A DNA stretch of 64,000 nucleotides, from the IMG/VR virus record IMGVR_UViG_3300035188_001379, positions 1 to 64,000 of that record, one strand, 5' to 3'. The translations under genes were made by a program, and so were the position numbers. Under the pieces are notes generated by a model. The model saw nothing but the letters and a program-made list of their open reading frames with translations, did no database searches and was not told the DNA's origin. This stretch comes from a virus. Of the stretch, positions 10,685 to 26,092 are shown in pieces; the first letter of the stretch is position 1, and each line of letters opens with the position of its first letter.

Positions 10685-10687
10685 TTT

Positions 10688-11086: not shown

Positions 11087-11087
11087 T

Positions 11088-11468
11088 ATGACACAGGAAG
11101 ATTACAAGGAAGCTTTCGTAGCAGGGTTTGTAAAACGTGCCGAGCAGCACGGATTCGAGAAGCAGGCAATCGTAGGAATGCTCGCAGGCACAGGGTTAAG
11201 ACTGCTGGCTCCTATATTTGGACAACACTACCTAACAAAGGGGTTAGGTGCAATTGCTGCCCGAAAAGGTGCTGGTAGAGTAGGTAAGCATGCAAAGAAT
11301 TTACATACTCTACTTACAGAATCCCCCATGGTTTCTAGAAGTTTAGGAGATAACTTGAAGGGACAAGCCGCCTTCATGGGTACATCCATATTAGCGGACA
11401 GGGCATTAAATCCTATAGTTGATCCTCTCGCCACTAAGTTAGAGCAAAGAGACTATAGGAGAAATTAA
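11088..11468 (+). CDS. putative internal virion protein with an N-terminal GF-K-A module
   Basis: YKEAFVAGFVKRAEQHGFEKQA followed by basic amphipathic or hydrophobic cargo. Confidence 0.65.
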   Translation: MTQEDYKEAFVAGFVKRAEQHGFEKQAIVGMLAGTGLRLLAPIFGQHYLTKGLGAIAARKGAGRVGKHAKNLHTLLTESPMVSRSLGDNLKGQAAFMGTSILADRALNPIVDPLATKLEQRDYRRN

Positions 11469-11480
11469 TATTTCGTGATT

Positions 11481-12806
11481 ATGCTTACAGCCCTACAAGG
11501 ATACTTATACAAACAAGCCCAGGGGAGTCTTCCCTCTGCACCTGCAGGCGCTCCCTCTCCAGGAGTACCCGTCACGCCTACTAGCAGATATTATGGACCT
11601 ACAAGTGGTCCTGGAGTTATAAATGTAGGCTCTCCTTCGACCAATACATCAGGAGGTAGTCTCACTCTTCCACGTAAGCCTACAAATTTTAACGCCATGG
11701 GTTCAGGTCTAGGTGTCTTGAGTAGCGGGCTTAACGTTTATGGTAATTTAACCCACAGAAACGAGACCTCTCAAGGCACAGTCTACGACGACCCTCAGTA
11801 CGGACAGGCCGCACTTAATACCGCCGCAGGTTTAGGGGAAGCTTATAAGCTAAGAAATGCTTTGCGTTTTCCTGCCGCCGCTTCTACTGTGGCTCCTACC
11901 GCCGCTAAGACTGTAGGTGGAGCTTTACTTAGAAACGCAGCTCCTATAATGGGAGCAGTTGGCGTAGGTTCGAGATTGTTAGACAAAGACTATCTAGGGG
12001 CAGGTATAGATGCACTAAGCACAGCCGCACCCATCGTAGGTACAATGATTGCCCCAGGTGTAGGCACTGCAATAGGTACGGGAGTTAGTTGGCTAGGTCA
12101 GGGAATAAATGCTTATAGAGATATTAGGAAAAACCAGCAGCAGACCAAATTGCCTCCGCCGAGCATAGGGCAAGCGCAGCCACAATCCACACAACCAAAA
12201 GTAGCTTCTTTTATGTACACGTCCGACAACGATTTCAAAATTAAAAAGGCTTTCGCCTCAGGTTTCGTAAAATCTGCGGTAGCCAAAGGAGTGACTATAG
12301 ATGAATTCAGTGCCTTAACTAAACAAGCCTTATCAGCAGGAACTAGCCTAACTTATGACGACGTGTCTGCTATCAAAGCTTTGTTGGCAAATAATGAAGG
12401 CTCTGAAGATATTTACAGCGACCCTACAGGGGAGGCTATGCGTAATTATAAATCACGACTGTTAGCAGCCAGAGACGCCTCTTCTCAAGAGATCCCGGCT
12501 GTCTCAGGGGCCTTAGCAGGCTTACGCGCAGGAAGCTTGGGCGGCTTAGCGGGCGCAGGTATCGGAGGTTCTTTAGGTATGCTAGCTAAACACACACCAA
12601 TCCTTAATCTACCGTACCGCTTTAAACGTAATATGCCTACTGCCGGTGCGCTAGGAGGAACAGCGTTGGGCAGCATTATCGCAGCGCTACCTGCAGCCAA
12701 ACAGAAATATGAAGCTTCGAAAGCTTTACAAAAATTGCACAGCTCCAGCAACCTCGACGCTCTACAGCAGCTTGGGCAAGAGGATAGAGCGGTATTAAAC
12801 AGCTAA
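11481..12806 (+). CDS. Gly/Ala-rich putative ejection protein with an internal GF-K-A module
   Basis: YLYKQA N-terminus; IKKAFASGFVKSAVAKG...TKQA; several glycine zippers (GSLGGLAGAGIGGSLG). Confidence 0.65.
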   Translation: MLTALQGYLYKQAQGSLPSAPAGAPSPGVPVTPTSRYYGPTSGPGVINVGSPSTNTSGGSLTLPRKPTNFNAMGSGLGVLSSGLNVYGNLTHRNETSQGTVYDDPQYGQAALNTAAGLGEAYKLRNALRFPAAASTVAPTAAKTVGGALLRNAAPIMGAVGVGSRLLDKDYLGAGIDALSTAAPIVGTMIAPGVGTAIGTGVSWLGQGINAYRDIRKNQQQTKLPPPSIGQAQPQSTQPKVASFMYTSDNDFKIKKAFASGFVKSAVAKGVTIDEFSALTKQALSAGTSLTYDDVSAIKALLANNEGSEDIYSDPTGEAMRNYKSRLLAARDASSQEIPAVSGALAGLRAGSLGGLAGAGIGGSLGMLAKHTPILNLPYRFKRNMPTAGALGGTALGSIIAALPAAKQKYEASKALQKLHSSSNLDALQQLGQEDRAVLNS

Positions 12807-12811
12807 TTTAT

Positions 12812-14071
12812 ATGTCTAAAGAATATACAAACTTTAAGCAGGACCTAGCTAATCCTGAAGCAGGTTTAAACTCGGACTTGTATCACGCGTTGTCGCCGAT
12901 TGTTTCTCGAGGACCCTCTGGACCTTCTTCTAGAGAAGAACAACAGAAGCTTGATAGTTTGAGGGAGGATGTACGTAAAGGTATCGTGGGACTTGAGTAC
13001 ATGGCGGGGTTAAAAAAGAATAAAGGAGAAACTTTTTATGATGAGCATCCTGTACAAGCGTTAACTACTGACGCGCTTGGCAACGCATCGATTTTAGGGG
13101 CAGGTCTAACTGGTGGAGGTATGCTTTTGAACAGTATTAGACAAAAGCAGAATTTGGATAAAGTTATGCCTGCCGCTATGGCTCGTATGGGTAATACGCC
13201 TGACAAGGATCTTTCAAACCCTGAAGCACTGCTTAATCCTAGAGAAGGTACTGTCCGAGGAGACATAGCTAAAATATACGGGGACCCGGAGAGTTCAACT
13301 AGGATGCAGCTCATCGACAGACTGTCTGATGTTGCACCAAATGACCCAAATTCCTTGTCTAGTAAATTGTTAAGCGCAGATACTGCCGAGGCTAAGGCGA
13401 CTAGGAAACATCAGAAATTGTTGAAACAATTGAACGCGCAGTTATTAACTGCTGCAGACGACAAAGAAGCCAATAAGATAAGCAAACAGATTGCAGGAGC
13501 TGAAAAGCTGTACGAGGAACTCCGCAAAAATAACGCTAAAGCTAAAGGCGAAGTTCTAGCTGCGGCAAGGGCGTCTCAAGGAGATAAATACTTGAAGAAC
13601 CACGTCAATTTTCACGAGGCATTGACAAGAGCTAAGGAAAAAGGAGGATTCAGCTCGCCTGTAGGTTCAGGTTTAAACTTACCTGAGTTCATTGCCCCAG
13701 ATAAACACCAAGGCTTAGTCGATTTGATCGAGAACATGCAGCTAACAAAAGCCCATCCTGGGTTTAATAGAGATTTACTTCTGCAGTCTGTTTCCGATTA
13801 TTTAGATGACCCTGCCGAGCTAGCCAAGTTTGAGAGAGTTAGCTTACCCAAGATCATGAGCGCAGATCATCAAGGGTCAGGCATCCGTAGGTTTCTTTCG
13901 CGAAATAAGTTCCCTATAGCTGCAGGTGCTGCCACTGCAGCCGGAGGGGCAGGTCTCTATTACCTACTCAAAGCCATGCAAGACAAGATGTACTCCAAGG
14001 ATAAAGTAAAGGATTGGAAAAAGACTCTACTTAAGTCTAAAGGAGATTTTGACGCCGCAAACCAAATCTAA
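12812..14071 (+). CDS. putative ejection protein with hydrophobic Gly/Ala helices
   Basis: ILGAGLTGGGMLL and IAAGAATAAGGAGLYYLL segments with a coiled-coil middle. Confidence 0.55.
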   Translation: MSKEYTNFKQDLANPEAGLNSDLYHALSPIVSRGPSGPSSREEQQKLDSLREDVRKGIVGLEYMAGLKKNKGETFYDEHPVQALTTDALGNASILGAGLTGGGMLLNSIRQKQNLDKVMPAAMARMGNTPDKDLSNPEALLNPREGTVRGDIAKIYGDPESSTRMQLIDRLSDVAPNDPNSLSSKLLSADTAEAKATRKHQKLLKQLNAQLLTAADDKEANKISKQIAGAEKLYEELRKNNAKAKGEVLAAARASQGDKYLKNHVNFHEALTRAKEKGGFSSPVGSGLNLPEFIAPDKHQGLVDLIENMQLTKAHPGFNRDLLLQSVSDYLDDPAELAKFERVSLPKIMSADHQGSGIRRFLSRNKFPIAAGAATAAGGAGLYYLLKAMQDKMYSKDKVKDWKKTLLKSKGDFDAANQI

Positions 14072-14076
14072 TAACT

Positions 14077-15525
14077 ATGTATAGAGGACTCATTAAATTT
14101 AGTGCTACCGATGACTGGCGTTGGGATGTTGACCCTGTGCAATTGATACACAACGTAAACACGTTGACCAAAGCTGGAGCAGACAACACAGAACTACGCA
14201 CTGAAAAAACAGCAGGACAAACAGACGCTCTCGTTATTGCTCTGGGCGCTTATGAAGGGACAGGAGCAAATCGGAATGGGGATATCTTTAAAGAGGCAGA
14301 ATGTCTCAAGAACTATAAGACATTTGTTAAGTCTGGAAGCAAAGGTAAAGATGGCAAGTACGACGGGCGCGCTTTAAACAGGCATCATAAAAATAAACCG
14401 GAAGACCCTAAGTACGGTAATATTAAAGCAGCTACTTACAATAATAAGATGAAGCGTATCGAGCTGATTATAGGGCTCGACAACGACAAGTGCGCAGAAG
14501 AAATCCAGAAATTGGCTGAAGGAAAGCAGATTAATGTAAGTATGGCAGCTAAGGTAGCCTACGATAAATGCACGTGGTGTGGACATGAGGCAAAAGACGA
14601 CAACCACCGTTGCGAACACATACCTAAAAAACTAGGAGAGATTAACAAGCAAGGTGAGATGTGTAGTATGGAAAATATGAACCCTCGCTGGTTCGAATTA
14701 TCTATTGTAGGCAGACCTGCCGATCGGATAGGTATGTCCCTCAAGCTCGCCTCTGATAACGCTTACATCAAAACAGCTAGCGACTATAAAACACTATATC
14801 CCGGCTTTGTTGCGCCAGAAGATACTCAGGAGTATATCTCGATATCTAAGTATGCTCAGGAAAAACGTAGATTGCTTAAGAAGCTTTCTGCTATGGAAAA
14901 GCATATCGAAGCAATCGCTGAAGCAGGCCCTAAGAACTCAAAAGAAAAGTACATTTCCGAGCAGAAATCAAAAATCAGTCATGGTGACGATATTTCTGAC
15001 GATACTTTAGAAGAGCTCAGGAAGTTTGAACCATCAAAGCTGCTCAGAGCCTTAGCTGATGAAGGGATTGTTTTTTCTCCTAAAGATTTTGTAAAATATC
15101 TTTTCGGTACGAAAAACATCTCAAATTCTGAGGACATGTTCAGTAAGATTAAAAAGCAGCTTCCTTCTATGTTTTCAGACCTAGAAGAAGATGGAGATGA
15201 CGTTGTAAATGATGAGAAGTATGAGCCGTCTGGGTCCGATATTATGCCTAAAGGTATCTTGAATATGGTGAGAGGACTGTTTGACGATCATTCTCTTTTT
15301 GATAAACCTGTGCACGGCAGGATTATGAAAATAACCATAATCAAAAAAATGCCTTCCTCTAAGCTGAGCCGCAAATCAGAGAATGAAGGCCACACGAAGG
15401 AAGCCTCGATATCTGAGCTAACAAGACAATACGCAGCGTATAAATTAGCTGCTTTTAGATATTTAGATAGTAAAGATAAACTAGACGAAGACACCATGTA
15501 CAATATTCTATTGCAAAATAGATAA
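14077..15525 (+). CDS. prohead (capsid maturation) serine protease with a Cys/His insert and C-terminal extension
   Basis: NRNGDIF, RHH (candidate catalytic His), INVSM (candidate catalytic Ser), FELSIVGRPAD (cf. ELSxVxxPA in HK97-type proteases), CTWC...RCEH; lies upstream of scaffold and MCP. Confidence 0.8.
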   Translation: MYRGLIKFSATDDWRWDVDPVQLIHNVNTLTKAGADNTELRTEKTAGQTDALVIALGAYEGTGANRNGDIFKEAECLKNYKTFVKSGSKGKDGKYDGRALNRHHKNKPEDPKYGNIKAATYNNKMKRIELIIGLDNDKCAEEIQKLAEGKQINVSMAAKVAYDKCTWCGHEAKDDNHRCEHIPKKLGEINKQGEMCSMENMNPRWFELSIVGRPADRIGMSLKLASDNAYIKTASDYKTLYPGFVAPEDTQEYISISKYAQEKRRLLKKLSAMEKHIEAIAEAGPKNSKEKYISEQKSKISHGDDISDDTLEELRKFEPSKLLRALADEGIVFSPKDFVKYLFGTKNISNSEDMFSKIKKQLPSMFSDLEEDGDDVVNDEKYEPSGSDIMPKGILNMVRGLFDDHSLFDKPVHGRIMKITIIKKMPSSKLSRKSENEGHTKEASISELTRQYAAYKLAAFRYLDSKDKLDEDTMYNILLQNR

Positions 15526-15531
15526 AAATAC

Positions 15532-15560
15532 TTGGAAGCATCAAAAAATTAATATAAGAT
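15532..15560 (+). promoter_or_regulatory. sigma70-like promoter
   Basis: TTGGAA-17 nt-TAAGAT. Confidence 0.4.
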
Positions 15561-15584
15561 TTACCTACAACAGCAATACGTATT

Positions 15585-16721
15585 ATGCCATCAAACCCTA
15601 AAAATATTTTAGCCACCTTATTGGCGAAGCAAGCCGCAGGTGAAATTCCTATGTCTGCCGGAGAAGAAGCCGTACACGAGGAGGCTGAAACTCCTCAGGA
15701 AGAAGCTCTTGAGCACCTCCCAGGACAATATGAAGAAGGCGCAGTTGAGCCTGGTGAGTTAGAAGGTGGGGAAGATGCAGACGCTAGAGTGGAGCAATTA
15801 CTGGCTCAGCTTTCGCCAGAAGAACTGGATCATTTGACTGAGCTTTTAGCTGAGGACATGTCTGGAGGTGAAGAACCTGCTGCAGAAATTGATGAAGAAG
15901 AATCTGTGGAAGACCCTGCAGAACTAGCTCAGCTGATTGAGCAGCATCTCGCCAATTCGCCCGAAGCTAATCCAGAAGATGCCGACCCAGAAAAAATGGC
16001 AGCTTTAGCCTTTGTGAAATCTGCCTCTTACATCGAAGGTTTTATCGAGCAGGCGTTAGCTCATGGAGCCTCAGTGAAAGAAGCTGTCGACATTTATGAC
16101 ACGGCCCTTTCTAGAAGCCTCGACTCCTTAAATATTTACAAAACAGCCGCCAGAGGTAAATACGCAAGACGCAGAGCAAACGCATCTCGCCGCGCCTCCG
16201 CGCCTCAGGCTGCTCCTTCCGCAGCCAGCAAAGCGCAGGAGGCTGCTCCCACAAAAAAGCCCGACTATGAAGGACCGTCTATGGGCAGCAAAATTAAACA
16301 TCACCTAGAGGATCATCCAGAAACTGCCGTAGCTCTAGGTGCGGGTGCGGCCGCCACAGCCGCAGGCGGAGCCTACTTAGCTACCCGCAAAAACAAAGAC
16401 AAAGAAGACTCCGACGAGAAGACTGCAGCTTATTATGAAGGAGTACTTGAGCGCGCTCGAGAGTACGGACTCTCAGACCATGAAGCTGTACAGATTGTTA
16501 AGTCTGCTACGTTAGGGCAGATGCGTAACCCGAAGGTGGTAGCTGCTCTAAGAGCTGCTGCTTCGTCAGCGTCCTCTGCAGCAAAAAAGGCCCCAAAAGG
16601 GGAGGCAGATAAGCTATTACAAAGAGCACGTATCGCCGCTATAAAAAACAAAGCTTTGATTGCTGGCGGTGCTGGCTTAGCCGGAGGGGCCGCATTAACT
16701 TCGGCCCTTTCTGATGACTAG
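15585..16721 (+). CDS. modular internal head polyprotein (acidic N-terminus, two GF-K-A modules, two basic hydrophobic peptides)
   Basis: KSASYIEGFIEQALAHG...KTA and KTAAYYEGVLERAREYG...KSA modules flanking Arg/Lys/Ala-rich peptides. Confidence 0.65.
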   Translation: MPSNPKNILATLLAKQAAGEIPMSAGEEAVHEEAETPQEEALEHLPGQYEEGAVEPGELEGGEDADARVEQLLAQLSPEELDHLTELLAEDMSGGEEPAAEIDEEESVEDPAELAQLIEQHLANSPEANPEDADPEKMAALAFVKSASYIEGFIEQALAHGASVKEAVDIYDTALSRSLDSLNIYKTAARGKYARRRANASRRASAPQAAPSAASKAQEAAPTKKPDYEGPSMGSKIKHHLEDHPETAVALGAGAAATAAGGAYLATRKNKDKEDSDEKTAAYYEGVLERAREYGLSDHEAVQIVKSATLGQMRNPKVVAALRAAASSASSAAKKAPKGEADKLLQRARIAAIKNKALIAGGAGLAGGAALTSALSDD

Positions 16722-16732
16722 TAACAAAAGTA

Positions 16733-16761
16733 TTTACAAGCAGCTAAAAACAAAATAAACT
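16733..16761 (+). promoter_or_regulatory. sigma70-like promoter
   Basis: TTTACA-17 nt-TAAACT. Confidence 0.5.
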
Positions 16762-16782
16762 TCAACAATAGAAACTACAAAT

Positions 16783-17724
16783 ATGGCAAAACTAACTAAA
16801 CACGCAGAAGTCCTTAACCAGTTGCATACCATGGTTAAAAAGCAAGCTGAAGAAGCTCAGAAGAATATCTCCGGCAAGCCTGGAGAAGATGTTAAGTCTG
16901 TGAGTGTTGGGGGCGAGCATGAGTCGTATAACAAAAACTCTGTAGGCCCAGAAAACGTAGCTCAAGGTTATCACCAGAAGCCTACGGAAGATTCTTCTGA
17001 ACCTCTCGCTGGCGCAAAAACTGCAAACGATTTAGGTGCCGAGATTTTGGACATTATCCGCAAGCAGGCGGAAGCGCAGGATTCTGCCACAGGCAAGCCT
17101 GGAGATGTGAAGTCTGAGAGCGTTGGAGATGATAAGGAAAATGTTGATAAGAATGCTGTTAAGCCTGAAAACAATAAGCAGGAGTACAAGCAGGCTCCTT
17201 CATCCGACTCCTCCAAGCCTGTAGCCTCTGCTAAGAAAGCAGAAGAATCTGTTGAAGACCTTGCACAAAAGGTTGCTTCTTATACCTTAGGTCGCCAATT
17301 TTGTGCCGCGTTGCTGAAGTCTGCAGGTGTTCATCATCAAGATGACTCTGCTGATGAGACCATCATGATGAAAGAAGCAGGCCGCAGAGATTTTGATTTG
17401 CTCATCTCTCAAGCTGCTGAAGACCTCGAAGGAACTGAGAAGCAGGCCTCTGATGAATATCTTGAAAAAGAAGCTGAGGAAGCTGGTGCTGCCTATTTTG
17501 ATGAAATCCTCAAGCAGGCTGCCCTTGAAGAAGCTGTAGAAGAAAACAAGCAGCTTGCCGCCAAGGTGGCAGCTTACGAAGCTTATATTAAGGAAGCTCA
17601 AGAAGCCTACGAGGCCGACCAGTACGCAGCCTCCGCGCAAGAGCAGCAAGTCAAGCTCGCTGAATCTGTAGCTGATATTGTTCTGAATAAGCTGAGAGCT
17701 GAAATGGCTCCCTCTGCTGAGTAA
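16783..17724 (+). CDS. capsid scaffolding protein (putative)
   Basis: Acidic and coiled-coil-like; lies between protease and MCP; about 15 K-x-A motifs; internal duplication of about 60 aa. Confidence 0.7.
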   Translation: MAKLTKHAEVLNQLHTMVKKQAEEAQKNISGKPGEDVKSVSVGGEHESYNKNSVGPENVAQGYHQKPTEDSSEPLAGAKTANDLGAEILDIIRKQAEAQDSATGKPGDVKSESVGDDKENVDKNAVKPENNKQEYKQAPSSDSSKPVASAKKAEESVEDLAQKVASYTLGRQFCAALLKSAGVHHQDDSADETIMMKEAGRRDFDLLISQAAEDLEGTEKQASDEYLEKEAEEAGAAYFDEILKQAALEEAVEENKQLAAKVAAYEAYIKEAQEAYEADQYAASAQEQQVKLAESVADIVLNKLRAEMAPSAE

Positions 17725-17735
17725 GGTTGCTTTTT

Positions 17736-17894
17736 ATGTCTGCTGACTCTACGGAAACAAAAGATACTGTAGAGCAGCAGGCTATTAGCGCGCTCCAACA
17801 TCTCGATGCTGCTGAGCAGCAAAAAGTTTTGGAGTATATCGCTAGCTTAATCCATTTATCTGAAATCAATCATGACCAAGCAAGCATTGGATAA
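17736..17894 (+). CDS. small acidic helical protein (absent from the ORF track)
   Basis: 52-aa ORF MSADSTETKDTVEQQAISALQHL... fills the gap between the two scaffold-like genes and overlaps the next start by 23 nt. Confidence 0.4.
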   Translation: MSADSTETKDTVEQQAISALQHLDAAEQQKVLEYIASLIHLSEINHDQASIG

Positions 17895-18264
17895 GGTAGC
17901 AACTTTCGTAAACGTCGCTTTGTCTGAAATTAGTCAGCTCTCTAAAAAAGTTGCCGCTTACGAAAGCAAAAAAGCTGAAGAAGACAGACAAGAAAACATT
18001 GCCCTAGAGGGAGCTTTAAAAAAAGCTGCGGAGGCTATGTATAACTCTGATTTCATTAACGACGAGGAAGAAAAAACTTTGTTTGTTAAGAAAGCCAAAG
18101 AAGACGCCCTGTATCTGGCTAAAGTGGTTGAGCGCGTATGTAACGCAGCCGACGTAGCTTACATGGGAAAATCTGCTTCCGTTAAATCCTCAAACCAGTC
18201 AGATGATCCTGTCATGCGCAGAGCTTTTGGCTACGACAATAACTATAGTTTATTAGATGACTAA
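17872..18264 (+). CDS. second scaffold-like or head assembly protein
   Basis: 130 aa, helical, with KQA/KVA/KKA/KSA motifs; ends in DDPVMRRAFG. Confidence 0.6.
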   Translation: MTKQALDKVATFVNVALSEISQLSKKVAAYESKKAEEDRQENIALEGALKKAAEAMYNSDFINDEEEKTLFVKKAKEDALYLAKVVERVCNAADVAYMGKSASVKSSNQSDDPVMRRAFGYDNNYSLLDD

Positions 18265-18420
18265 ATATTCTTAAAATATAGTTGACTATTTGATTATTTT
18301 TTCCGACAATATTTATATTACTTTGCATTAGACCATTACTGAATTGACCTTGGCCGGTTATCGGGGTGGAAAGCATAGACAGACAAACCAAACAACAAAA
18401 CACAAAGAAAGAAAAGACAT

Positions 18421-18933: not shown

Positions 18934-18959
18934 CCTTAACCTGAGAAATAACAATTAAT

Positions 18960-19937
18960 ATGGAAAAAATCGCAAATCAGAGAGTATTTAACGACACGTT
19001 CGTTGAAATGGTTAAGGCTGGCGAAGAAAAGAAGGCCGCTGTCAGCGCACAGTCTTTTACCCGCAATAAGCTTCGTGAAGAAAGCTTCACAGAAAAGATT
19101 ATCACCCCTATCGACATCAGCAATGATGACCTCGACAAGGCTGAAAATCCTGAGCTGCTGGTTAAGTGGAACGATCGTGAGCCTGATACAGCCCCAGCTG
19201 TAACAATTCCTCTCGGCGTTGTGCCTGATATGTACCAGTTTGCTGGAACTCGTTATCCTTCTTACTTCACACGTATCACGTCTCCGAAGTACAACAAGGA
19301 CATCGACAACCTCCGCGGTTATGACTACGACATCCGTGCGATCATGCTCGAGTTGTCCACAAAGGATATCGCCACTGAGATCGACTCGCGCTTCATGGCT
19401 CGCGTTGATAGCATCATTGGCCCTGTCAACCAGGGGAACGTCCTCAATGGAACAGGTACGACTGTCCTCAGCGCGCTGCCGCAGAACGTTACAATCGCAG
19501 GAGGCATCACCCGTGAAAACGTGGCGGAAGCTTTCAAGGTGATTAAGCGTCTCCGTGTTCCATTTGGTCCCTCTCAGCCTGATGGCGGAGAAACCAAGGG
19601 AGTCATGTTGATGAACAATGTCACTGCTGACGACTTCGTCAAGATGAGCCGCTCTGAAGTTGGTGGTGACCTTGCGCAGGATATGTTTGTGAACGGTCTC
19701 CCTTCCAAGACCCTCTTGGGAGTCAAGCCGATCTATACCATCAAGCGTGATCTCGTCCCTGACGGTGTTATCTACCTGTTCTCTTCCGAAGAATTCTTCG
19801 GCAAGTACTACAGACTGCAGCCTCTCACAGTGTTCATGAAGAACGAGGCGTACTTCCTTGAGTACTTCCAGTACATGAACCTCTCGCTCGCGATTGGTAA
19901 CGTGAAGGGTGTTGTCAAGGTTGACTTCAACGGCTAA
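18960..19937 (+). CDS. major capsid protein (HK97-fold, putative)
   Basis: 325 aa; follows protease, scaffold and decoration genes; codon bias typical of high expression; strong terminator after it; starts MEKIA. Confidence 0.85.
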   Translation: MEKIANQRVFNDTFVEMVKAGEEKKAAVSAQSFTRNKLREESFTEKIITPIDISNDDLDKAENPELLVKWNDREPDTAPAVTIPLGVVPDMYQFAGTRYPSYFTRITSPKYNKDIDNLRGYDYDIRAIMLELSTKDIATEIDSRFMARVDSIIGPVNQGNVLNGTGTTVLSALPQNVTIAGGITRENVAEAFKVIKRLRVPFGPSQPDGGETKGVMLMNNVTADDFVKMSRSEVGGDLAQDMFVNGLPSKTLLGVKPIYTIKRDLVPDGVIYLFSSEEFFGKYYRLQPLTVFMKNEAYFLEYFQYMNLSLAIGNVKGVVKVDFNG

Positions 19938-19963
19938 GTAGCCACTTCAACCTAGTAAGTTAT

Positions 19964-19990
19964 AAAAGGGGACCTTCGGGTCCCCTTTTT
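19964..19990 (+). terminator. Rho-independent terminator
   Basis: AAAAGGGGACC-TTCG-GGTCCCCTTTTT: perfect stem, cUUCGg tetraloop and U-tract. Confidence 0.9.
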
Positions 19991-20006
19991 GCTGCCTATA
20001 ACCTAC

Positions 20007-20035
20007 TTGATATAACGTACACGCTGATTTATAAT
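20007..20035 (+). promoter_or_regulatory. sigma70-like promoter (likely leaderless mRNA)
   Basis: TTGATA-17 nt-TATAAT; ATG begins 8 nt after the -10 element. Confidence 0.65.
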
Positions 20036-20042
20036 CAATATT

Positions 20043-20339
20043 ATGAGCCTAGACACCAACATCCTTTCTGAGTTTGACTCTTTTATTAAAAAGTATGCAG
20101 CTCAGATGTCTCCTAACCAACCAGAGCCAGGGAATGCGCCTACTTCTGTAGTGCATCCTCAGGTAAATGCAGGCAATAGTCTACCTAGAGAAACGCAGGC
20201 TCCTCCTCCTGTCAATAATTCCACATCAGGAGAAATACATAATCCTAGCGACGGTGCGAGTGGAGGAGGACCTAAGCCTGTAACAGCACCTAAACAGCCC
20301 CTAAGCATGTCAGGCTCATTCATTAAAAATTCTAAATAA
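20043..20339 (+). CDS. Pro-rich small protein with an N-terminal helix ending in KYA
   Basis: 98-aa ORF; ILSEFDSFIKKYAAQ followed by a disordered Pro/Ser/Gly tract. Confidence 0.55.
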   Translation: MSLDTNILSEFDSFIKKYAAQMSPNQPEPGNAPTSVVHPQVNAGNSLPRETQAPPPVNNSTSGEIHNPSDGASGGGPKPVTAPKQPLSMSGSFIKNSK

Positions 20340-20341
20340 TT

Positions 20342-20788
20342 ATGGCTACCCCAATACTCACAAGCGAAGAAGTGCGCCTTTTTTTACAAGATAGAGAAGA
20401 GCTGAATCCTCTTTTGCTAGGTATAAGATTTACTCCCGAGATGATTGAGCAAGCTATGATCAATACGGTGGATTATTTTAATCTAATGAATCCTCCGTTA
20501 GGTATGATGTTCACCCTAGAGTCTTTTCCTTACCGCTCTCTTTTGCTTCTAGGTACCGCCTCCTACTTGCTTAGGTCAGGGGCGATCAACGAGGCTGCGA
20601 ATCAGCTTTCTTATGCTGCAGATGGAGTACAAGTTAATGATAAAGACAAAGCGCAGATATTTATGTCTTTGTCTCAAAACCTTCAGCAAGACTTTAAAGA
20701 GCTTGGTCAGCAAATCAAGATGAACCATAATATCGCGCAGATTTATGGTGTGAAACATTCAGAATATATCTACAGACGTCGTTACTAA
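20342..20788 (+). CDS. head-tail adaptor or neck protein (putative)
   Basis: 148-aa helical protein after the MCP; TSEEVRLFL...FTPEMIEQAM pattern. Confidence 0.6.
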   Translation: MATPILTSEEVRLFLQDREELNPLLLGIRFTPEMIEQAMINTVDYFNLMNPPLGMMFTLESFPYRSLLLLGTASYLLRSGAINEAANQLSYAADGVQVNDKDKAQIFMSLSQNLQQDFKELGQQIKMNHNIAQIYGVKHSEYIYRRRY

Positions 20789-21141
20789 TGGCTGACAACG
20801 AAGATAGCCTTAATAGCGCAGCAAGTCAGCTTGCTGAGCAGCTCAAAATCAAAGCAAGTGACCCTATATTTAAAATTAAGCTTAGGCTTAAAAAAGGGTT
20901 AAAGAAGCTGAACCCTTTTAGCGCTCTGATGCAAGGCAAAGCAACTAAAGACGAAACAAGACAACATATGGTCAAGGCCAGCTCAACTGGTGATTATATG
21001 GTCTACCGTGGAAAAGATCCAGATAAACCAGACCCGTACGCTTCTGAAGAAAAAACATTACGTAACGGTATGCTGGTCCCGAATCTACCTAAGAATCCTT
21101 TTCACGTTAATTGTAATCCTAGCAATCTCTCAAATTACTAA
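20788..21141 (+). CDS. hypothetical protein
   Basis: 117-aa ORF, translationally coupled. Confidence 0.5.
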   Translation: MADNEDSLNSAASQLAEQLKIKASDPIFKIKLRLKKGLKKLNPFSALMQGKATKDETRQHMVKASSTGDYMVYRGKDPDKPDPYASEEKTLRNGMLVPNLPKNPFHVNCNPSNLSNY

Positions 21142-21142
21142 T

Positions 21143-21964
21143 ATGCCTGTCGATCCTAGAAAAGCTTTTAAAAAAGTAGATGTCATTCCTGACTGGGAGA
21201 GAGGCCATTTTATTCAATGGCAGCTTGATCCTTTTTTTAAAGGCATGCCTCCATATAACTTTTCTCTAGAGATCTCTGCCACTAGTAATTTCTCAGAAAT
21301 AATGGCGGTTAAAGCAAATCTAGGCGATGTATTTTTTGCTGTGGATGACACTAGGCTGAAACAGTCTTGGGCTCCAAACTATTACTATAGAGTAGTATTG
21401 ATCACAAAGGACGGCAGGCAGTTCTATTCTACTCCTTTATTGTTCGGGTCTACTAGGCATGAACAGCGCAAATATGCAATGGCCTCAGATATCATTAGAA
21501 AAGAGCTGTTATTGTGTCGCTTTGTGGGTACAGAGGGCTGGCTGCTTCGCAGAAAATCCTACGGCTTTAAAAGCCCTACTACTCTAGCTAATCTAGACCC
21601 TGTATCTGGAGTACCCATAACTGATACTAAATTACAAGACTATGGCGTAGGAATCGACGAAGGGTATTTTGATCCTGTGCCGTGCGCGTTTTATATTGAA
21701 GCTAGCGCACAAGATAAACAGTTAGACCCCAACGGTATAGGTGTTAAAGAAACGTATAGCTCTCAAGTCAAACTTCCAGGTTATCCTATTGTGGAGGTGC
21801 GTGATGTTATCTGTGAAGCTAAGGATGGCTTTCGCTACAGTATACAGTCGAGAAACGCTAAGCAATTTCCAGGAACAAACATCGTGATAACACAGAAGGC
21901 CTCCATTAACCTAATCCCCCCAACGGACACGATTTATTCCATACCTTTACCAGTACCTCTTTAA
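21143..21964 (+). CDS. neck or head-closure protein (putative)
   Basis: ATG at 21143 preferred; beta-rich; YGVGIDEGYFDP motif; located between adaptor and tail terminator. Confidence 0.55.
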   Translation: MPVDPRKAFKKVDVIPDWERGHFIQWQLDPFFKGMPPYNFSLEISATSNFSEIMAVKANLGDVFFAVDDTRLKQSWAPNYYYRVVLITKDGRQFYSTPLLFGSTRHEQRKYAMASDIIRKELLLCRFVGTEGWLLRRKSYGFKSPTTLANLDPVSGVPITDTKLQDYGVGIDEGYFDPVPCAFYIEASAQDKQLDPNGIGVKETYSSQVKLPGYPIVEVRDVICEAKDGFRYSIQSRNAKQFPGTNIVITQKASINLIPPTDTIYSIPLPVPL

Positions 21965-21965
21965 C

Positions 21966-22670
21966 ATGGACTCATCTGACAATAGTCAATCAGAATTTTG
22001 CGCACAACCTGACATTGCGTATGTTTCTCCTTATGTACGCGAGCGTCTTGAGCAAGACACTCGTATCATGGTATTAACTCCATGGACTGTGCAGAATATT
22101 TGCTACGAGATTATTAAAAACTATATGCTCGAGAACCCTCCACAAAAAGAAGGGTACAAATTCTCACAAACATATGCCGCAGACGATTTTGAGACAGGTA
22201 TAGCCTTGGAGATTGCATATCATTACAAAGACTCAGTTATTCAGAAACGCCCAGCCATCTACGTGTCTAGAGGAGATGTTGTAGTCCAATTTCCGACGAT
22301 AAATCAGACCATGGGAGTGTTTCCAAAAGAGTCTGAAAAAACAAAGTTCGCCATGTTGCAGATGCCCATAAATCTAGCTGTTGTAGCTACTAATATAGGG
22401 TTTGCTGAGCAGCTAGCTCAGTACATATTTAAAATATTTTTGCGCTACCAGGAGGTGATTCGCAATGACTTTTGTTTAAGGCAATTTAAACTTGTTTCCA
22501 TAGGGCAGCCTATACTATACTTAGAGAGTAAAGATCACTTCGTTGTTAACGTCCAGCTTCAAGCTGTGTTTGATATGGGCTCTGTTATCAAAGGGGATGA
22601 CCTTAAACTCAAAACAGTCAGTTACACAGTTTTTACAAGTTGCGCCGAACAGCCCCTTTTAAACCAGTAA
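21966..22670 (+). CDS. tail completion or terminator protein (putative)
   Basis: 234 aa immediately before the sheath; KRPAIYVSRG motif. Confidence 0.55.
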   Translation: MDSSDNSQSEFCAQPDIAYVSPYVRERLEQDTRIMVLTPWTVQNICYEIIKNYMLENPPQKEGYKFSQTYAADDFETGIALEIAYHYKDSVIQKRPAIYVSRGDVVVQFPTINQTMGVFPKESEKTKFAMLQMPINLAVVATNIGFAEQLAQYIFKIFLRYQEVIRNDFCLRQFKLVSIGQPILYLESKDHFVVNVQLQAVFDMGSVIKGDDLKLKTVSYTVFTSCAEQPLLNQ

Positions 22671-22687
22671 GTTTTTTTAAAAAACTA

Positions 22688-22716
22688 TTGAAATACCTCT
22701 TTCATTTTACTAAAAT
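22688..22716 (+). promoter_or_regulatory. sigma70-like promoter
   Basis: TTGAAA-17 nt-TAAAAT upstream of the sheath. Confidence 0.65.
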
Positions 22717-22755
22717 TAACTCAGCAACCAATAGTCTAGGAGTAATAATAACAAT

Positions 22756-25700
22756 ATGGCATACATCACACCAAGAGTCTTAATTAAGCAGGAGTTTCTG
22801 CAAGTTCCAGTATACAGAGAATTCCCATTACCTGCGTTTATCATCGGACCGAATTACGCGTTGACCAGATATAGCGAAGCTGATGAAAAGCCTTTTACTG
22901 CGGTAGCTACATTGGATGGCGTTTCGCTTGAGTCAGGTAACTCTTATGTTGTCACCGCAGATACTAGATATGACTTTCCTAACGTTCCGGCTGGCGGAGA
23001 TGTTGACCATACCTACACAAAAGTCTACGCAGAATCCGTAGAGGCCAAATACTTTCCTCATCAGGATCTTCCAAGCGTCCCTGGAGCTGACGACGTCACC
23101 TTTTTAGTGGGTCCCTCCGGTCAGTATTACACCAACAGAGTTCAGCTGAACGCGACACTCAAGACCACGAATGGTTATACTCGTGATTCGTTTTTCGCTG
23201 AGCGTGATGTCGCTGTAGGAGATATTGTCGAGATCACCAGCTTAGACGCCGCAAATAACGAGACTGTGGTAAGATCGCGTATTAGCGGCTTGCTCGCCGA
23301 GACAGCCGCAGAAACACCATCCTTGGCTTCTGAGGTTGCTCCTCAGTATTATGCTAACGCTAACGGAGTATCCAACGGTACCAACCTTTTCACCTCACAA
23401 GGGGCAGACTTTATTGAGTCTGAGGTTGTCGGGAAGTATATTACCATTAATGGTATCGGTGTAAGACAGATTCTTTCTCGTCCTAACAGCTCCTCGTTGA
23501 TTTTGTCTTCTCCTGTAGCTACAGGAACAGCAAGAGGCTTTTTCATTGGCGGAGTTTATAATGATTTGGACAACTCACCTAAAGTTACGATGCTCACCGG
23601 CACAGTTACTGCAGGAGGAAGTTATACAGGCATCACCACAGCAATCGGCACCACCTCCGTTTATGTGGGCTATCCCTCACTGAATGTTCTGGAAGATACT
23701 TATACGATCACAGTTACTACAGGAGGATTAATCGACGCTGCAAGATTCCAGGTTACTTCATTGAATTCTGAAGCGCTCTATACAGGAAAGTCTCTCACTG
23801 TAACTGGCAGCAAGGGTGTTTTGGTTGTAGACGATAATGATGGGAATAACCTTACCTTTGAGTTCACAGTAAGTGATCCTCTTACTACTACCTTTGTCGC
23901 TTCGCCGACAGCGCAGTCTTGGACTATTGCCGGAACACGCGCCGCTGTCACTCAGGTTGTTCCTGATGCAGATGGTGACTATGCGGGTCAGTACGACATG
24001 ATCTATAAAGTTAAGGTAGATAGAGGCGGAACATTCTTCGACGGAGACAACGCAGACACTTGCGCAAGGCTGATTATCAGCTCGTCTAACATTGATAATA
24101 CTTCTCTTGTTCTTCCTGAGGCTGATGAGCCTTTCAGTGTAGGGACTTTTGGAGTTACTGCGAAGTTTGCTTCTGCACCCATCGGCAATGCTGGTAGCGG
24201 CTTCTACTTTATTGCAGGAGATACCTACTATATCCCAGTGGTGGCGGAGAAGCAGGGGAGAGTTTCGATCATCGAGCTTTCTGAAGACCTTCCTCAATCT
24301 GTGCTTGCAACTGCAACCAGCTCTTCTGCTTCGTTGTTTTTAACACAGAGGTCAATCCAGATTCCTGCTACGAGAAATCTCCTTACAGGAACTACCAATT
24401 GGGACCAGGACGGTAATTACATCACCATCAATGAAGGTCTCACCACATATGACCCGTATCTCGCGGTATCAGGTACACCTGTCCGTCTGCCTGTAGCTGC
24501 GGCTAAAATCTATGTAGAACATAGAGACTTGCTGCAAGACAATGTGGTAGCTATCGACTCTGTGCGTGATTTAGCCAGCGTCACAGATAAGTTGGGTACA
24601 GTACATCCTGATAATCCTCTCGCCCAAGGCGTGTATGATGCAGTTCTGAACGCCCAGAATCAGATTGTTTATTTCATCGGTGTAGCCACAGATGACCTGG
24701 AAGGTTACGCTGAAGCCATAAAGATCTCCGAAAAGAGCGATAAGGTTTACAGCTTTGTTCCTCTTACTTTTGACAGGACCATTCAGGACGCTGTAATCGC
24801 GCATGTTAACGCTTATAGTACTCCTGAAGTAGGACGCTGGAGAATTGCCTGGATATCTGCACAAGATAATAAGTCTTCTGTAATGTACGACTTGAAGCCT
24901 AACGGCGATCCGTACACTGCGACAGTGACAGACGATCCATCCGTGGCAGGTGTGCAGTATAAGCTGGTAACAGTGGCAGGAGCTAAGTTTATTGAAGACG
25001 GTGTAAGACCCAACGATGTTGTACGCTTGAACTTTAAGCTCAGCCCTGATGGCGAAGTTGTCTATGATGAGTATGTTGTAGATAGAGTACGCTCTAACTC
25101 GACGCTCTTGTTGACTACTCCATTGGCAGCAGCAATTACGTCTCCAATCAAGGCTCAAGTGGTGCGTAATTACACCAAGTCTGAAAGAGCCTATAACATT
25201 GCTCACATCGCCGGAGACTATAACAACAGACGTGTACGTGCAGTTTTCCCTGACACTTACAAGTATGGTGGAGTCACAAAGCAAGGCTACTTCGCAGCTG
25301 CAGGGCTTGCAGGCCTCAGATCTGGTGTCGTACCTCATCAAGGGTTAACTAACTCCGAATTCCTCGGAGCTGATGACTTGAGCAAGGTTGTGATTGAGTT
25401 TTCTCAAGATGATCTGAACACCTTAGCTGAGCAGGGCGTCTGGATCCTCACACAGGAAGTTGTTGGAGCTACTCCTTACGTCAGGCATCAGTTGACTACA
25501 GATACCCGTAGTCTGAATACTTCGGAAGATTCTATCACTACGAACGTAGATTCTATCAGCTACGCGTTAAAATCTGTACTTGCCCCATTCATTGGTCGTT
25601 ATAACATTAACCGTGAGAACATCTCGGCAGTTAAAGCGGCTGTGATTGAAGAACTGCGCTTTAGGGCGGGTAGTACCTATACTGTACGTGCCGGCAATCA

Positions 25701-25839
25701 GCTGGTGAGCTTCACTCCTGACACCGACATTATCAGGCTCGAGCAGAACGCCCAGTATAAAGATCGTATCGACGTAGAAGTACGCTTAAACGTACCATAC
25801 CCGATGAACTACATCAACTTGACGCTCATTGTCGGTTAA
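22756..25839 (+). CDS. contractile tail sheath protein
   Basis: 1027 aa; N-terminal YITPRVLIKQEF; C-terminal sheath core (AAAGLAGLRSG..PHQGLTN, LNTLAEQGVWIL, VRHQLTT, NVDSISY, VPYPMNYINLTL). Confidence 0.9.
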   Translation: MAYITPRVLIKQEFLQVPVYREFPLPAFIIGPNYALTRYSEADEKPFTAVATLDGVSLESGNSYVVTADTRYDFPNVPAGGDVDHTYTKVYAESVEAKYFPHQDLPSVPGADDVTFLVGPSGQYYTNRVQLNATLKTTNGYTRDSFFAERDVAVGDIVEITSLDAANNETVVRSRISGLLAETAAETPSLASEVAPQYYANANGVSNGTNLFTSQGADFIESEVVGKYITINGIGVRQILSRPNSSSLILSSPVATGTARGFFIGGVYNDLDNSPKVTMLTGTVTAGGSYTGITTAIGTTSVYVGYPSLNVLEDTYTITVTTGGLIDAARFQVTSLNSEALYTGKSLTVTGSKGVLVVDDNDGNNLTFEFTVSDPLTTTFVASPTAQSWTIAGTRAAVTQVVPDADGDYAGQYDMIYKVKVDRGGTFFDGDNADTCARLIISSSNIDNTSLVLPEADEPFSVGTFGVTAKFASAPIGNAGSGFYFIAGDTYYIPVVAEKQGRVSIIELSEDLPQSVLATATSSSASLFLTQRSIQIPATRNLLTGTTNWDQDGNYITINEGLTTYDPYLAVSGTPVRLPVAAAKIYVEHRDLLQDNVVAIDSVRDLASVTDKLGTVHPDNPLAQGVYDAVLNAQNQIVYFIGVATDDLEGYAEAIKISEKSDKVYSFVPLTFDRTIQDAVIAHVNAYSTPEVGRWRIAWISAQDNKSSVMYDLKPNGDPYTATVTDDPSVAGVQYKLVTVAGAKFIEDGVRPNDVVRLNFKLSPDGEVVYDEYVVDRVRSNSTLLLTTPLAAAITSPIKAQVVRNYTKSERAYNIAHIAGDYNNRRVRAVFPDTYKYGGVTKQGYFAAAGLAGLRSGVVPHQGLTNSEFLGADDLSKVVIEFSQDDLNTLAEQGVWILTQEVVGATPYVRHQLTTDTRSLNTSEDSITTNVDSISYALKSVLAPFIGRYNINRENISAVKAAVIEELRFRAGSTYTVRAGNQLVSFTPDTDIIRLEQNAQYKDRIDVEVRLNVPYPMNYINLTLIVG

Positions 25840-25849
25840 TTTAATCGTC

Positions 25850-26092
25850 ATGACTTCTTTTAAGGCAGGCTTTTTTAAATATGCCGAGGAGCAAGGTTTC
25901 TCTAAAGCCGAGGCCGAGCATTTATTCAAACAGGCTGAAGAATATCCAGCCACTGAACAAATGTTTCGAAGCCTTGCTCCTGAAGAAGAGTCTCACTCCC
26001 CTGAGGAATTAGAGGCTTTGTCCGAGTTGTTAAAGCAGCAAGCCATTAACAGTCAATTACATTTACCTGACGTACATCGTGTGCATTTATGA
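25850..26092 (+). CDS. small protein with an N-terminal GF-K-A module
   Basis: MTSFKAGFFKYAEEQGFSKAEAEHLFKQA; ATG at 25850. Confidence 0.65.
   Translation: MTSFKAGFFKYAEEQGFSKAEAEHLFKQAEEYPATEQMFRSLAPEEESHSPEELEALSELLKQQAINSQLHLPDVHRVHL

Follow-up and report, generated by a model that had tools for sequence, protein, structure and literature searches.

Otherwise unrelated proteins of an uncultured myophage share a module of about 28-33 residues (consensus K-x-A-A-Y-I-E-G-F-V-K-R-A-x-E-Y-G-F-S-E-x-E-A-x-E-L-L-K-Q-A) that is predicted to fold as a helical hairpin. We infer, tentatively, that it is a clade-specific docking tag for incorporation of these proteins into the prohead, and that it is probably clipped at K-x-A. 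The window analysed here, a stretch of 64,000 nucleotides, opens a genome of 184,465 bp. An initial annotation of the window had reported five copies of the module in four ORFs and had likened them to the capsid-targeting sequence of T4 internal proteins.

Copies of the module in the window

The copies, their carriers and the head genes discussed below are as follows.

9215..10684, + strand, head-module protein without the tag module; 17 K-x-A versus 4.8 expected, in a K-x-A-rich block
11088..11468, + strand, carrier ORF of 126 aa with an N-terminal half-module and glycine-zipper-like hydrophobic segments; aromatic residue of the module at nt 11115
11106..11168, + strand, module copy 1, a half-module; external profile E = 3.8e-7
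11475..12806, + strand, carrier ORF of 443 aa, Gly/Ala/Pro-rich, no family match; aromatic residue at nt 12252
12243..12329, + strand, module copy 2 (K-K-A ... K-Q-A), internal, the most divergent copy
14077..15525, + strand, prohead maturation protease (phrog_18299, E = 1.8e-9)
15585..16721, + strand, multi-module head protein of 378 aa, the gene directly after the protease; aromatic residues at nt 16029 and 16431
16017..16106, + strand, module copy 3, first in ORF 15585 (K-S-A-S-Y-I-E-G-F ... D-T-A); external profile E = 7e-5
16419..16508, + strand, module copy 4, second in ORF 15585 (K-T-A-A-Y-Y-E-G-V ... K-S-A); external profile E = 8.5e-8
16783..18264, + strand, two acidic scaffold-like proteins of 313 and 130 aa; 16 and 8 K-x-A versus 5.1 and 2.2 expected
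18960..19937, + strand, major capsid protein; N-terminal K-K-A at residues 24-26
25850..26092, + strand, carrier ORF of 80 aa with an N-terminal module and an acidic tail with a SPEEL motif; aromatic residue at nt 25859
25850..25936, + strand, module copy 5 (M-T-S-F-K-A-G-F-F ... K-Q-A); external profile E = 1.1e-6

All five copies lie in real ORFs at the places first given for them, and their K-x-A brackets read as annotated, copy 3 being without a closing K-x-A and copy 5 opening at the initiator Met. Written as a regular expression, the originally proposed consensus matches the window proteins five times, against a mean of 0.064 and a maximum of 2 in 2000 composition-preserving shuffles. 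An independent, external profile was built only from 77 metagenomic N-terminal modules; its domain E values are those listed above for the two copies in ORF 15585 and for the copies in ORFs 11088 and 25850, and 0.088 for the copy in ORF 11475, with the best unrelated ORF at 2.6. Because of these values, four of the five reported copies are robust and the ORF 11475 copy, whose leave-one-out E value is 0.058, is marginal. The copy in ORF 11088 is real but is a half-module only: K-E-A is followed by helix 1 (FVAGFVKRAEQHG), a Gly turn, F-E-K-Q-A and then a hydrophobic Gly-rich segment, a short form that is kept in its orthologues.

The resemblance among copies might be an artefact of low-complexity helical sequence, recent duplication or DNA-level gene conversion, the peptide itself being without function. 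The module is indeed short and helical, and in the leave-one-out analysis a profile from three of the reported sequences misses both copies in ORF 15585 (E = 6.2). The external profile recovers both, however, and the five matches stand far above the chance expectation; the module occurs in 617 clusters in public data, and its Gly and Ala positions are invariant. Copies within the genome have 39% amino-acid identity, with a third-codon-position identity of 0.41 at identical residues, and recent duplication or gene conversion is rejected as the source of the similarity because synonymous sites have diverged. Cluster count, synonymous divergence, the shuffle test and the external profile effectively refute the artefact reading, which we regard as extremely improbable. 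The module is conserved as protein and not as DNA, under purifying selection on the peptide. With the modules masked, the best BLASTP match among the nine carriers of the whole genome has E = 0.027, in agreement with the description of the ORFs as otherwise unrelated.

Genomic context and distribution

In the window the module occurs in head and tail operons with close gene spacing, its carriers lying 1-59 nt from head and tail genes. Three carriers are within the head operon, between portal-side genes and the capsid gene, and ORF 11088 begins 1 nt past the gene that precedes it. ORF 25850 starts 11 nt after a 1027-aa putative sheath gene and stands between this gene and the next tail genes, a position kept in 13 of 13 relatives; its tail is acidic, not basic. 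ORF 15585 and ORF 25850 have one additional short motif in common. In 13 related phages the positions of the window carriers are syntenic, and a protein with two or three modules comes right after the protease in all 13 head loci; in relatives, different proteins with an N-terminal tag occupy the slot immediately upstream of the decoration and capsid genes. In the window this multi-module protein, ORF 15585, combines an acidic N-terminal half bearing an LSPEEL motif with two modules and two Gly/Ala-rich hydrophobic segments, and it is a candidate hub or core protein. The protease consists of a catalytic domain at approximately residues 64-227 followed by a long C-terminal extension, and is 29% identical to Arash gp222 (E = 1e-28). 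No real relative of the protease, the 1027-aa sheath candidate or the ORF 15585 family profile was found among PDB sequences. Virion-type RNA polymerase subunits are encoded beside the head genes, and a genome profile search found no module in them; the tag therefore cannot be the sole route into the head.

Run genome-wide, an HMM built from the five window copies detected six more outside the window (E = 1e-5 to 4e-11), giving 11 copies in nine proteins with nothing else above noise. Searched against 1.84 billion metagenomic representatives, the module profile matched 617 protein clusters at E <= 1e-3, of which 108 remained at E <= 1e-10, and cellular genomes are essentially without matches. 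Pfam, PHROGs and the PDB hold no match to the module: no family covers it in any carrier, even at E <= 1 in Pfam and at E <= 0.01 in PHROGs, and scans of all carriers and their neighbours with both libraries left it likewise uncovered. A tblastn search of 50,697 phage records with a 37-aa module matched nothing, the module profile found nothing in Arash, and the ESM Atlas gave no usable match. The module is clade-specific, and the clade is known from uncultured genomes.

The six outside copies lie about 65 kb from the head genes, and arrays of tagged genes in relatives lie about 65-75 kb away, with a papain-like peptidase, two DUF1501 proteins and a giant P-loop protein as neighbours. This location, among enzymes and small ORFs and far from head genes, is consistent with a module unrelated to the capsid, whose binding partner would be a host factor or else a phage hub outside the virion (a chaperone, membrane site or polymerase), the tagged small basic proteins acting within the infected cell in host takeover or anti-defence. 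Anti-defence loci, too, typically have small genes in variable arrays, and one carrier belongs to the tail block. We nevertheless consider such a role unlikely, given the three head-operon carriers, which are closely spaced (gaps of 1-59 nt) and syntenic in relatives, the multi-module protein directly after the protease, and module boundaries that use the very K-x-A that specifically marks head proteins; in addition, all genes concerned share the strand of the structural genes. Docking into the prohead remains the reading we prefer.

K-x-A in head proteins

When 1600 gapped residue pairs are compared across eight head proteins, K-x-A shows the highest enrichment (72 versus 30 expected, p = 5.5e-11), whereas the remaining genome contains 295 versus 294 expected. 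The protease has 11 where 4.2 are expected, and the two that close the protease domain are in register with those of Arash; the K-K-A of the capsid protein is likewise in register with a K-E-A of the Arash capsid protein. In the 313-aa scaffold-like protein, K-Q-A and K-[TK]-A bound a duplicated internal unit of about 60 aa. Head proteins of Arash and D69, cultured distant relatives with a homologous protease, likewise have K-x-A as their top pair. Arash gp223, encoded by the gene after the protease, ends in three hairpin-like repeats bracketed by K-x-A, and the protein was detected in virions by mass spectrometry (PMC10585845). When these Arash/D69 repeats are compared with the module, the summed E is 5e-6 with the forward profile, E is 0.046 with hhalign and only 0.53 with the reciprocal profile; homology between the two is marginal. 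The shared K-x-A enrichment and the hairpin-like repeats after the protease make the proposed system open to experiment, and the enrichment in Arash and D69 opens its cleavage half to testing, possibly with existing mass-spectrometry data. Alternatively, K-x-A could have a structural role in these helical proteins.

Each end of the module is closely tied to K-x-A, the multi-module gene adjoins the protease gene, and the protease has its long C-terminal extension, all of which would suit an exosite that recruits substrates to the prohead protease and so marks proteins for processing rather than for targeting to scaffold or shell. We find this quite improbable, as the head proteins richest in K-x-A (ORFs 9215, 16783 and 17872) are without the module, and Arash and D69 are K-x-A-enriched without a detectable module of this family. 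Furthermore, the protease must still be in the prohead, and therefore the exosite reading in practice merges with that of a docking tag.

Module form and placement

The proposal of a helical hairpin is borne out by AF2, which predicts with confidence a helix at residues 3-17, a turn and a second helix at 22-37 (pLDDT 91-97). In the model of ORF 15585 pLDDT is 92-97 over residues 111-190, and K145 and A147 of copy 3 are invariant across 51 homologues. The mean net charge of the module is -1.3. Its portability is equally evident, since it occurs on unrelated proteins in N-terminal, internal and tandem positions: 104 of 267 modules begin 12 residues or fewer from the N-terminus and 20 are C-terminal. 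A third architecture, with one N-terminal module and two C-terminal ones, occurs in P0031, P0036 and P0060, for which the contigs recovered were of about 1 kb, or none. The boundaries of the module coincide with its K-x-A brackets, as first claimed, and conservation collapses right after the closing K-x-A. In 7 of 13 fusion junctions, where a tagged gene has been fused behind another domain, K-x-A-x directly precedes the vestigial Met, in about three independent families.

A Foldseek search of the PDB with an 85-aa model returned nothing at E <= 0.001 and only generic helical matches, the best VIA-align score against 48,161 chains was Z 4.8, all matches being generic hairpins, and the ORF 15585 model likewise had only generic helical matches in BFVD by Foldseek. 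BurrH, with TALE-like 33-residue repeats, gave a summed E of 3.5e-14; we read this value as a sum of weak repeat matches, with no significant single stretch, rather than as membership, and only profile positions 19-37 align, a region that corresponds to a G-x-S/T-x-x-E-A helix cap. A match to a proteasome subunit (E = 2e-4) was rejected as chance or local helix-cap similarity.

Conserved hydrophobic positions occur on both helices beyond the need of a lone hairpin, and many carriers contain glycine-zipper segments, which are typical of oligomerising membrane-active proteins. Both features would be expected if head-core and ejection proteins shared a domain, structural or self-associating, that is retained in the mature proteins and helps to build an internal body or ejection complex, and that is neither an address label nor a removed propeptide. 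The constant multi-module protein after the protease in 13 of 13 relatives fits such a domain, as does the opening K-x-A of copy 4, which the AF2 model of ORF 15585 places inside a continuous helix, and Arash gp223 with its similar repeats is present in mature virions (PMC10585845). A retained domain leaves unexplained, however, why so many small genes standing alone, whose basic tails are unrelated and for the most part disordered, have kept the module precisely at the N-terminus, why K-x-A is the exact point at which conservation ends, and why K-x-A is enriched in module-free head proteins and in Arash and D69. We therefore hold it to be not very likely, and continue with the docking tag.

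Cargo and proposed mechanism

In relatives the tagged genes form back-to-back arrays of small genes with only the tag in common, for example seven in 4.3 kb in L020. Most tagged proteins comprise the tag and one disordered tail, and 91% of 77 attached tails are net positive (+5.1 per 100 aa), as against 34% for the proteins of the phage itself. Additional parts are present in a minority of carriers (DUF3008, DUF6321, MazG, ATP-grasp, acylphosphatase-like or zincin-like). The cargo is proposed to include many small basic Pro/Arg/Ala/Gly-rich polypeptides akin to T4 internal proteins, glycine-zipper proteins that are possibly membrane-active, and a few enzyme-bearing proteins.

As a docking tag, the folded helix-loop-helix would bring otherwise unrelated proteins into the assembling prohead core. 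Its likeliest receptor is a core or scaffold component, and a specific candidate is the multi-module protein of the ORF 15585 family, which could bind by hairpin-to-hairpin association. Once assembly is complete, cleavage by the prohead protease probably takes place at the closing K-x-A of the module, and for internal copies probably at the opening K-x-A too, and the cargo would be ejected into the host. A fuller formulation, which we put forward as possible but doubtful, is a cargo loading and release system in a large-phage lineage that couples a self-associating hairpin of about 30 residues to a Lys-x-Ala protease code: a hub with two or three hairpins would lie in the prohead core, and proteins with an N-terminal hairpin would co-assemble with it, be cut at K-x-A and be ejected with the DNA.

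Only for T4 is it known in detail how large phages select the proteins that are loaded into the head and injected; for phiKZ-type phages the picture is partial. If the proposal is correct, the variable arrays of tagged basic proteins would correspond, in this lineage, to the internal proteins that T4 deploys against host defences, served by a system unrelated in sequence to those of T4, phiKZ or P22. A second, unrelated folded tag with another cleavage syntax would imply that loading by a tag plus a protease code arose more than once, and would make it possible to catalogue, by sequence, the injected proteins of uncultured phages, which are likely anti-defence factors. The module might also be of use in loading phage capsids with cargo, as a larger tag of perhaps greater specificity.

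Comparison with known systems

In the polyvalent proteins of phages (Iyer, Burroughs, Anand, de Souza, Aravind 2017; PMC5512222), enzyme and uncharacterised domains are mixed and matched, and the predicted fate of these proteins is packaging and injection. Some tagged proteins resemble them in carrying the extra domains listed above. Most, however, are small with a single tail, and their common element is an address-like tag rather than an effector domain, one that matches no Pfam family, the LPD families included.

The P22 scaffolding protein has a C-terminal helix-loop-helix coat-binding domain that is used to load cargo into P22 capsids; this element is basic, docks proteins to the inner side of the procapsid through electrostatic contacts with the coat protein, and also functions in fusion with foreign cargo. 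The module is predicted to belong to the same fold class, the small helix-loop-helix, but it is mostly N-terminal or internal and net acidic. The two have no sequence match, and the structural matches of the module are only generic (Z <= 4.8); the Pa193 scaffold fragment 9b40_G, for instance, aligns with the module model at Z = 4.0 and rmsd 4.4 A.

Cleavage specificities of head proteases include L/I-x-E for T4 gp21 and S/A/G-x-E for phiKZ/SPN3US. K-x-A is like these codes in that it is the most enriched pair in head proteins of three phages with a homologous protease, and unlike them in its residues, the putative cut falling after Ala with Lys two residues before. A cut after Ala recalls the herpesvirus assemblin site, (V/L)-x-A|S. 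In the maturation of large phage heads by proteolysis, a short motif present in many head and internal proteins marks propeptide boundaries (PMC5694885, PMC10052503).

In T4 the capsid targeting sequence (CTS) is carried by internal proteins IPI-III and Alt, and T4-type phages have diverse, mostly basic internal proteins that share only this sequence and occur in varying sets (PMC9026906, PMC3012670). Targeting, cleavage and delivery have been demonstrated for T4 (PMC9026906, PMC3012670), whereas for the module all three are proposed. The T4 CTS is about 10 residues long and is cut after Glu at L/I-x-E, in contrast to a predicted folded hairpin of 28-33 residues that ends in K-x-A, and the module differs from the CTS as described in that a conserved head protein has it internally and in tandem, with 2-3 copies. 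No homology to the propeptides of T4 internal proteins was detected, no carrier being matched by any PHROG family in a library that includes T4 proteins. The CTS of T4 internal proteins was reportedly treated by Mullaney and Black in 1996. Like the CTS, which ends at a gp21 site, the module ends at a short motif enriched in head proteins; like it, too, the module is placed at the extreme N-terminus as the element common to unrelated proteins. With small genes that form variable arrays and have nothing but the tag in common, and with their basic tails, the parallel to T4 is closer than the initial annotation had it.

Recurrence of the module in the phage genome

The virus record from which the window is taken is a single contig of 184,465 bp, estimated to be 94% complete, and the window forms its first 64 kb. 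Nearly every gene between 0 and 52 kb is on the + strand.

Landmark genes of the window
80-1474 and 2997-4847: two RNA polymerase beta-type subunits, lying immediately before the head genes
14077-15525, + strand: prohead protease (phrog_18299, E = 1.8e-9)
18960-19937, + strand: major capsid protein (28% identity to the Salmonella phage Arash capsid protein, E = 1e-34)
22756-25839: 1027-aa protein, weakly matched to tail sheath proteins
57025-58740, minus strand: large terminase

All five copies of the module listed in the initial annotation were recovered where it had placed them, each in a real ORF (ORF 11088, ORF 11475, ORF 15585 with two copies, and ORF 25850, named by start nucleotide) and with K-x-A borders as described. 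The consensus pattern matches five times in the window proteins compared with 0.064 times in shuffles, and a profile built from these copies has no additional match there (next best E = 1.2). Extended to the whole genome, this profile picks up six more copies, spread over five proteins at 127-143 kb (E = 1e-5 to 4e-11). When the profile is built from 77 metagenomic sequences only, four window copies are clear and the ORF 11475 copy is marginal (E = 0.088); in ORF 11088 the copy has a conserved, shortened form consisting of helix 1, the turn and K-Q-A followed by a hydrophobic segment. We consider it very improbable that the similarity among the copies is an artefact. The carriers had been described as unrelated apart from the module, and no similarity is found among the nine carriers once the modules are masked.

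The window carriers are tightly packed in the head and tail operons, lying 1, 6, 59 and 10 nt from the preceding gene. Copies outside the window, and the arrays of tagged genes in relatives, are separated from the head genes by about 65-75 kb.

Block containing the six copies outside the window
126000-144000 of the whole genome (L001)

Among the products of this block are a 1308-aa P-loop protein bearing DUF6321, a peptidase of the papain family, a pair of neighbouring full-length DUF1501 proteins (E = 1e-112 and 1e-127), a module-fused DUF3008 domain and, within a 702-aa carrier, an acylphosphatase-like domain.

Predicted fold and selection on the peptide

The consensus of 253 distinct copies, anchored on the invariant Gly, reads K(53%)-x-A/Q-A-Y(89%)-I-E-G(97%)-F-V-K-R-A(96%)-x-E-Y-G(99%)-F-S-E-x-E-A(82%)-V-x-L-L-K(62%)-Q-A(74%), and beyond the closing Ala conservation is at most 26% at every position. 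AF2, run with a 70-sequence alignment, predicts a helix at 3-17, a four-residue turn and a second helix at 22-37 with pLDDT 91-97, in agreement with the helical hairpin originally proposed, while the tail is modelled at lower confidence and mostly without secondary structure. In the model of ORF 15585, residues 111-205, which include the first module, are confidently helical, and the second module is likewise predicted to be a helix-turn-helix. Fold searches return generic hairpins only, and no family in Pfam, PHROG or PDB covers the module. That the module is a retained structural or oligomerisation domain is an alternative reading, which we regard as rather unlikely.

Copies within the genome share 39% protein identity and, at the third codon positions of identical residues, only 41% identity; their conservation therefore reflects selection on the peptide. 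The same third-position divergence rules out recent copying as the cause of the similarity.

K-x-A as a signature of head proteins

An unbiased enrichment test covered all 400 residue pairs at four spacings, with no motif presupposed. In the eight head-module proteins encoded at 9215-18264, K-x-A is by far the most over-represented pair (72 observed versus 30 expected, p = 5.5e-11), and in the remaining genome it occurs at expectation (295 versus 294.3). All of the seven genes with the strongest K-x-A enrichment genome-wide fall in the window, six of them within the 4.9-18.3 kb head region. In ORF 16783, which is acidic and scaffold-like, a unit of roughly 60 residues is duplicated in tandem (16840-17241, as read from the translation), each copy having K-Q-A-E at its start and A-K-[TK]-A at its end.

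The same test applied to the head proteins of two cultured phages again ranks K-x-A first, in Arash (37 versus 15.6) and in Vibrio phage D69 (42 versus 15.9), and the downstream tail genes of both have almost none. Protease gp222 of Arash is a homologue of the window protease (29% identity, E = 1e-28), and between the two phages a K-x-A where the protease domain ends and another near the N-terminus of the capsid protein are in register. As judged from sequence, this distribution is the pattern expected for the recognition motif of a maturation protease, for which K-x-A is a candidate. The site of herpesvirus assemblin, with which K-x-A may be compared, is cut after Ala. That the module is an exosite for the protease seems improbable to us.

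The highest K-x-A excess in the genome (15 observed versus 2.4 expected, p = 3e-8) belongs to a protein outside the head block.

K-x-A-rich protein
54103-55161, + strand: 352-aa protein near the large terminase gene

It has no family match and may be another protease substrate or head protein.

Carrier architectures and gene neighbourhoods

Of 267 modules in 160 matched proteins, 104 lie at the extreme N-terminus, 20 at the C-terminus and 143 internally; in keeping with the internal and tandem use noted earlier, the ORF 15585 family carries two or three modules per protein. That family, which has an acidic N-terminal half and Gly/Ala-rich hydrophobic segments, is one of two dominant architectures. 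The other comprises small proteins that start M-N-T-Q-Q-A-Y-I-E-G-F-V-K-R-A... and continue into unrelated tails rich in Pro/Arg/Ala/Gly, 91% of which are net positive compared with 34% of this phage's proteome. In related uncultured phage contigs the small tagged genes stand back to back, seven within 4.3 kb in L020.

Arrays of four to seven adjacent small tagged genes
L020 6988-11309
L021 5948-9693
L022 6374-9328

A few carriers have extra parts (DUF3008, DUF6321, MazG, ATP-grasp, an acylphosphatase-like domain, HExxH motifs). In fusions that place a tagged unit behind another domain, the vestigial Met is often immediately preceded by K-x-A-x (7 of 13 junctions, representing about three independent families).

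Two short motifs accompany the module in some carriers. A conserved EF-hand-like stretch, ELKGDQHKLDVDKDGKIEASDLKKLR, with a weak match to Pfam EF-hand_5 (E = 0.008), directly follows it in the metagenomic proteins P0005, P0049, P0063, P0088 and P0096 and at genome 137100-137200, and also lies between modules in some ORF 15585 family members. The motif SPEEL[DE]xLxELL occurs in the whole genome only in two module carriers, and its order relative to the module is reversed between them.

Occurrences of SPEEL[DE]xLxELL
15813-15851: LSPEELDHLTELL in ORF 15585
26015-26053: SPEELEALSELL in ORF 25850

Position is conserved among relatives. In 13 of 13 related head loci a multi-module gene directly follows the protease, and in all 13 a tagged gene of 77-85 aa follows the sheath candidate. 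Across these loci differing N-terminally tagged proteins, several with glycine-zipper segments, occupy the position immediately before the decoration and capsid genes; in the window an untagged protein is found in that position. A hub-binding element unrelated to the capsid is a further reading of the module, and an unlikely one in our estimation.

Distribution among phages

In a search of 1.84 billion representative proteins, a profile of 11 copies retrieves 617 clusters at E <= 1e-3, of which 108 reach E <= 1e-10. The members looked up are all unnamed hypothetical proteins of metagenomic origin, and their contigs resemble this phage, with the giant P-loop protein, papain-like peptidase and DUF3008 as neighbours. 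A capsid protein with 80-94% identity to that of the window phage is present on thirteen IMG/VR contigs. The profile search of related phages that had been proposed yields 4-12 copies in each of five relatives searched whole (165-204 kb). A collection of 50,697 phage records contains no cultured phage that matches the module. A pattern scan of 185,579 prokaryotic species, one genome per species, gives a single match, in a 2.5-kb contig (CAYOWH010000178.1, L025) binned with an uncultured Bacteriovoracaceae MAG; this contig may be mis-binned phage DNA or a weak hint of the host.

A possible connection to cultured phages is suggested by the gene directly after the protease in Arash and D69, which ends in three tandem, hairpin-like units, each about 26 residues long and conforming to K-x-A-[AS]...G..F.EA.ELVKEA, a syntax shared with the ORF 15585 family.

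Genes following the prohead protease
L002 9502-10269: Arash gp223
L039 9645-10454: Vibrio phage D69 0271

Comparison of the module with these repeats gives a summed E = 5e-6 for the forward profile, an in-register hhalign E = 0.046 and a reciprocal profile E = 0.53, so that homology is a marginal lead. Arash gp223 was detected in virions (PMC10585845). The particles of Arash, a cultured myovirus, comprise 116 proteins according to mass spectrometry, RNA polymerase subunits among them (PMC10585845), and the lineage is therefore one whose virions are loaded with many proteins. In Arash the counterparts of the two window subunits rank with the most abundant proteins of the particle (PMC10585845); neither window subunit carries the module, so a second route into the head must exist.

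A putative docking tag and its relation to the T4 capsid targeting sequence

The best explanation, held tentatively and at somewhat under even chances, is that the module is a docking tag for incorporation into the prohead, probably clipped at K-x-A. In docking, the hairpin of the tag would associate with those of the multi-module protein (the ORF 15585 family), as the conservation of that protein and the many conserved hydrophobic positions lead us to propose. We rank the docking tag first because the combination of features matches the logic of T4 capsid targeting, with real differences. In T4, the capsid targeting sequence is all that an assortment of basic internal proteins have in common, and gp21 cleaves it off (PMC9026906, PMC3012670). 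Unlike it, the module is three times longer and structured (as predicted), is used internally and in tandem, has a different putative cleavage syntax and bears no sequence relation to it. As in T4, a tag, here predicted to be folded, stands at the N-termini of unrelated proteins with mostly basic tails encoded in variable arrays; a conserved multi-tag protein lies beside the protease, and the module is bordered by K-x-A, the motif that marks head proteins.
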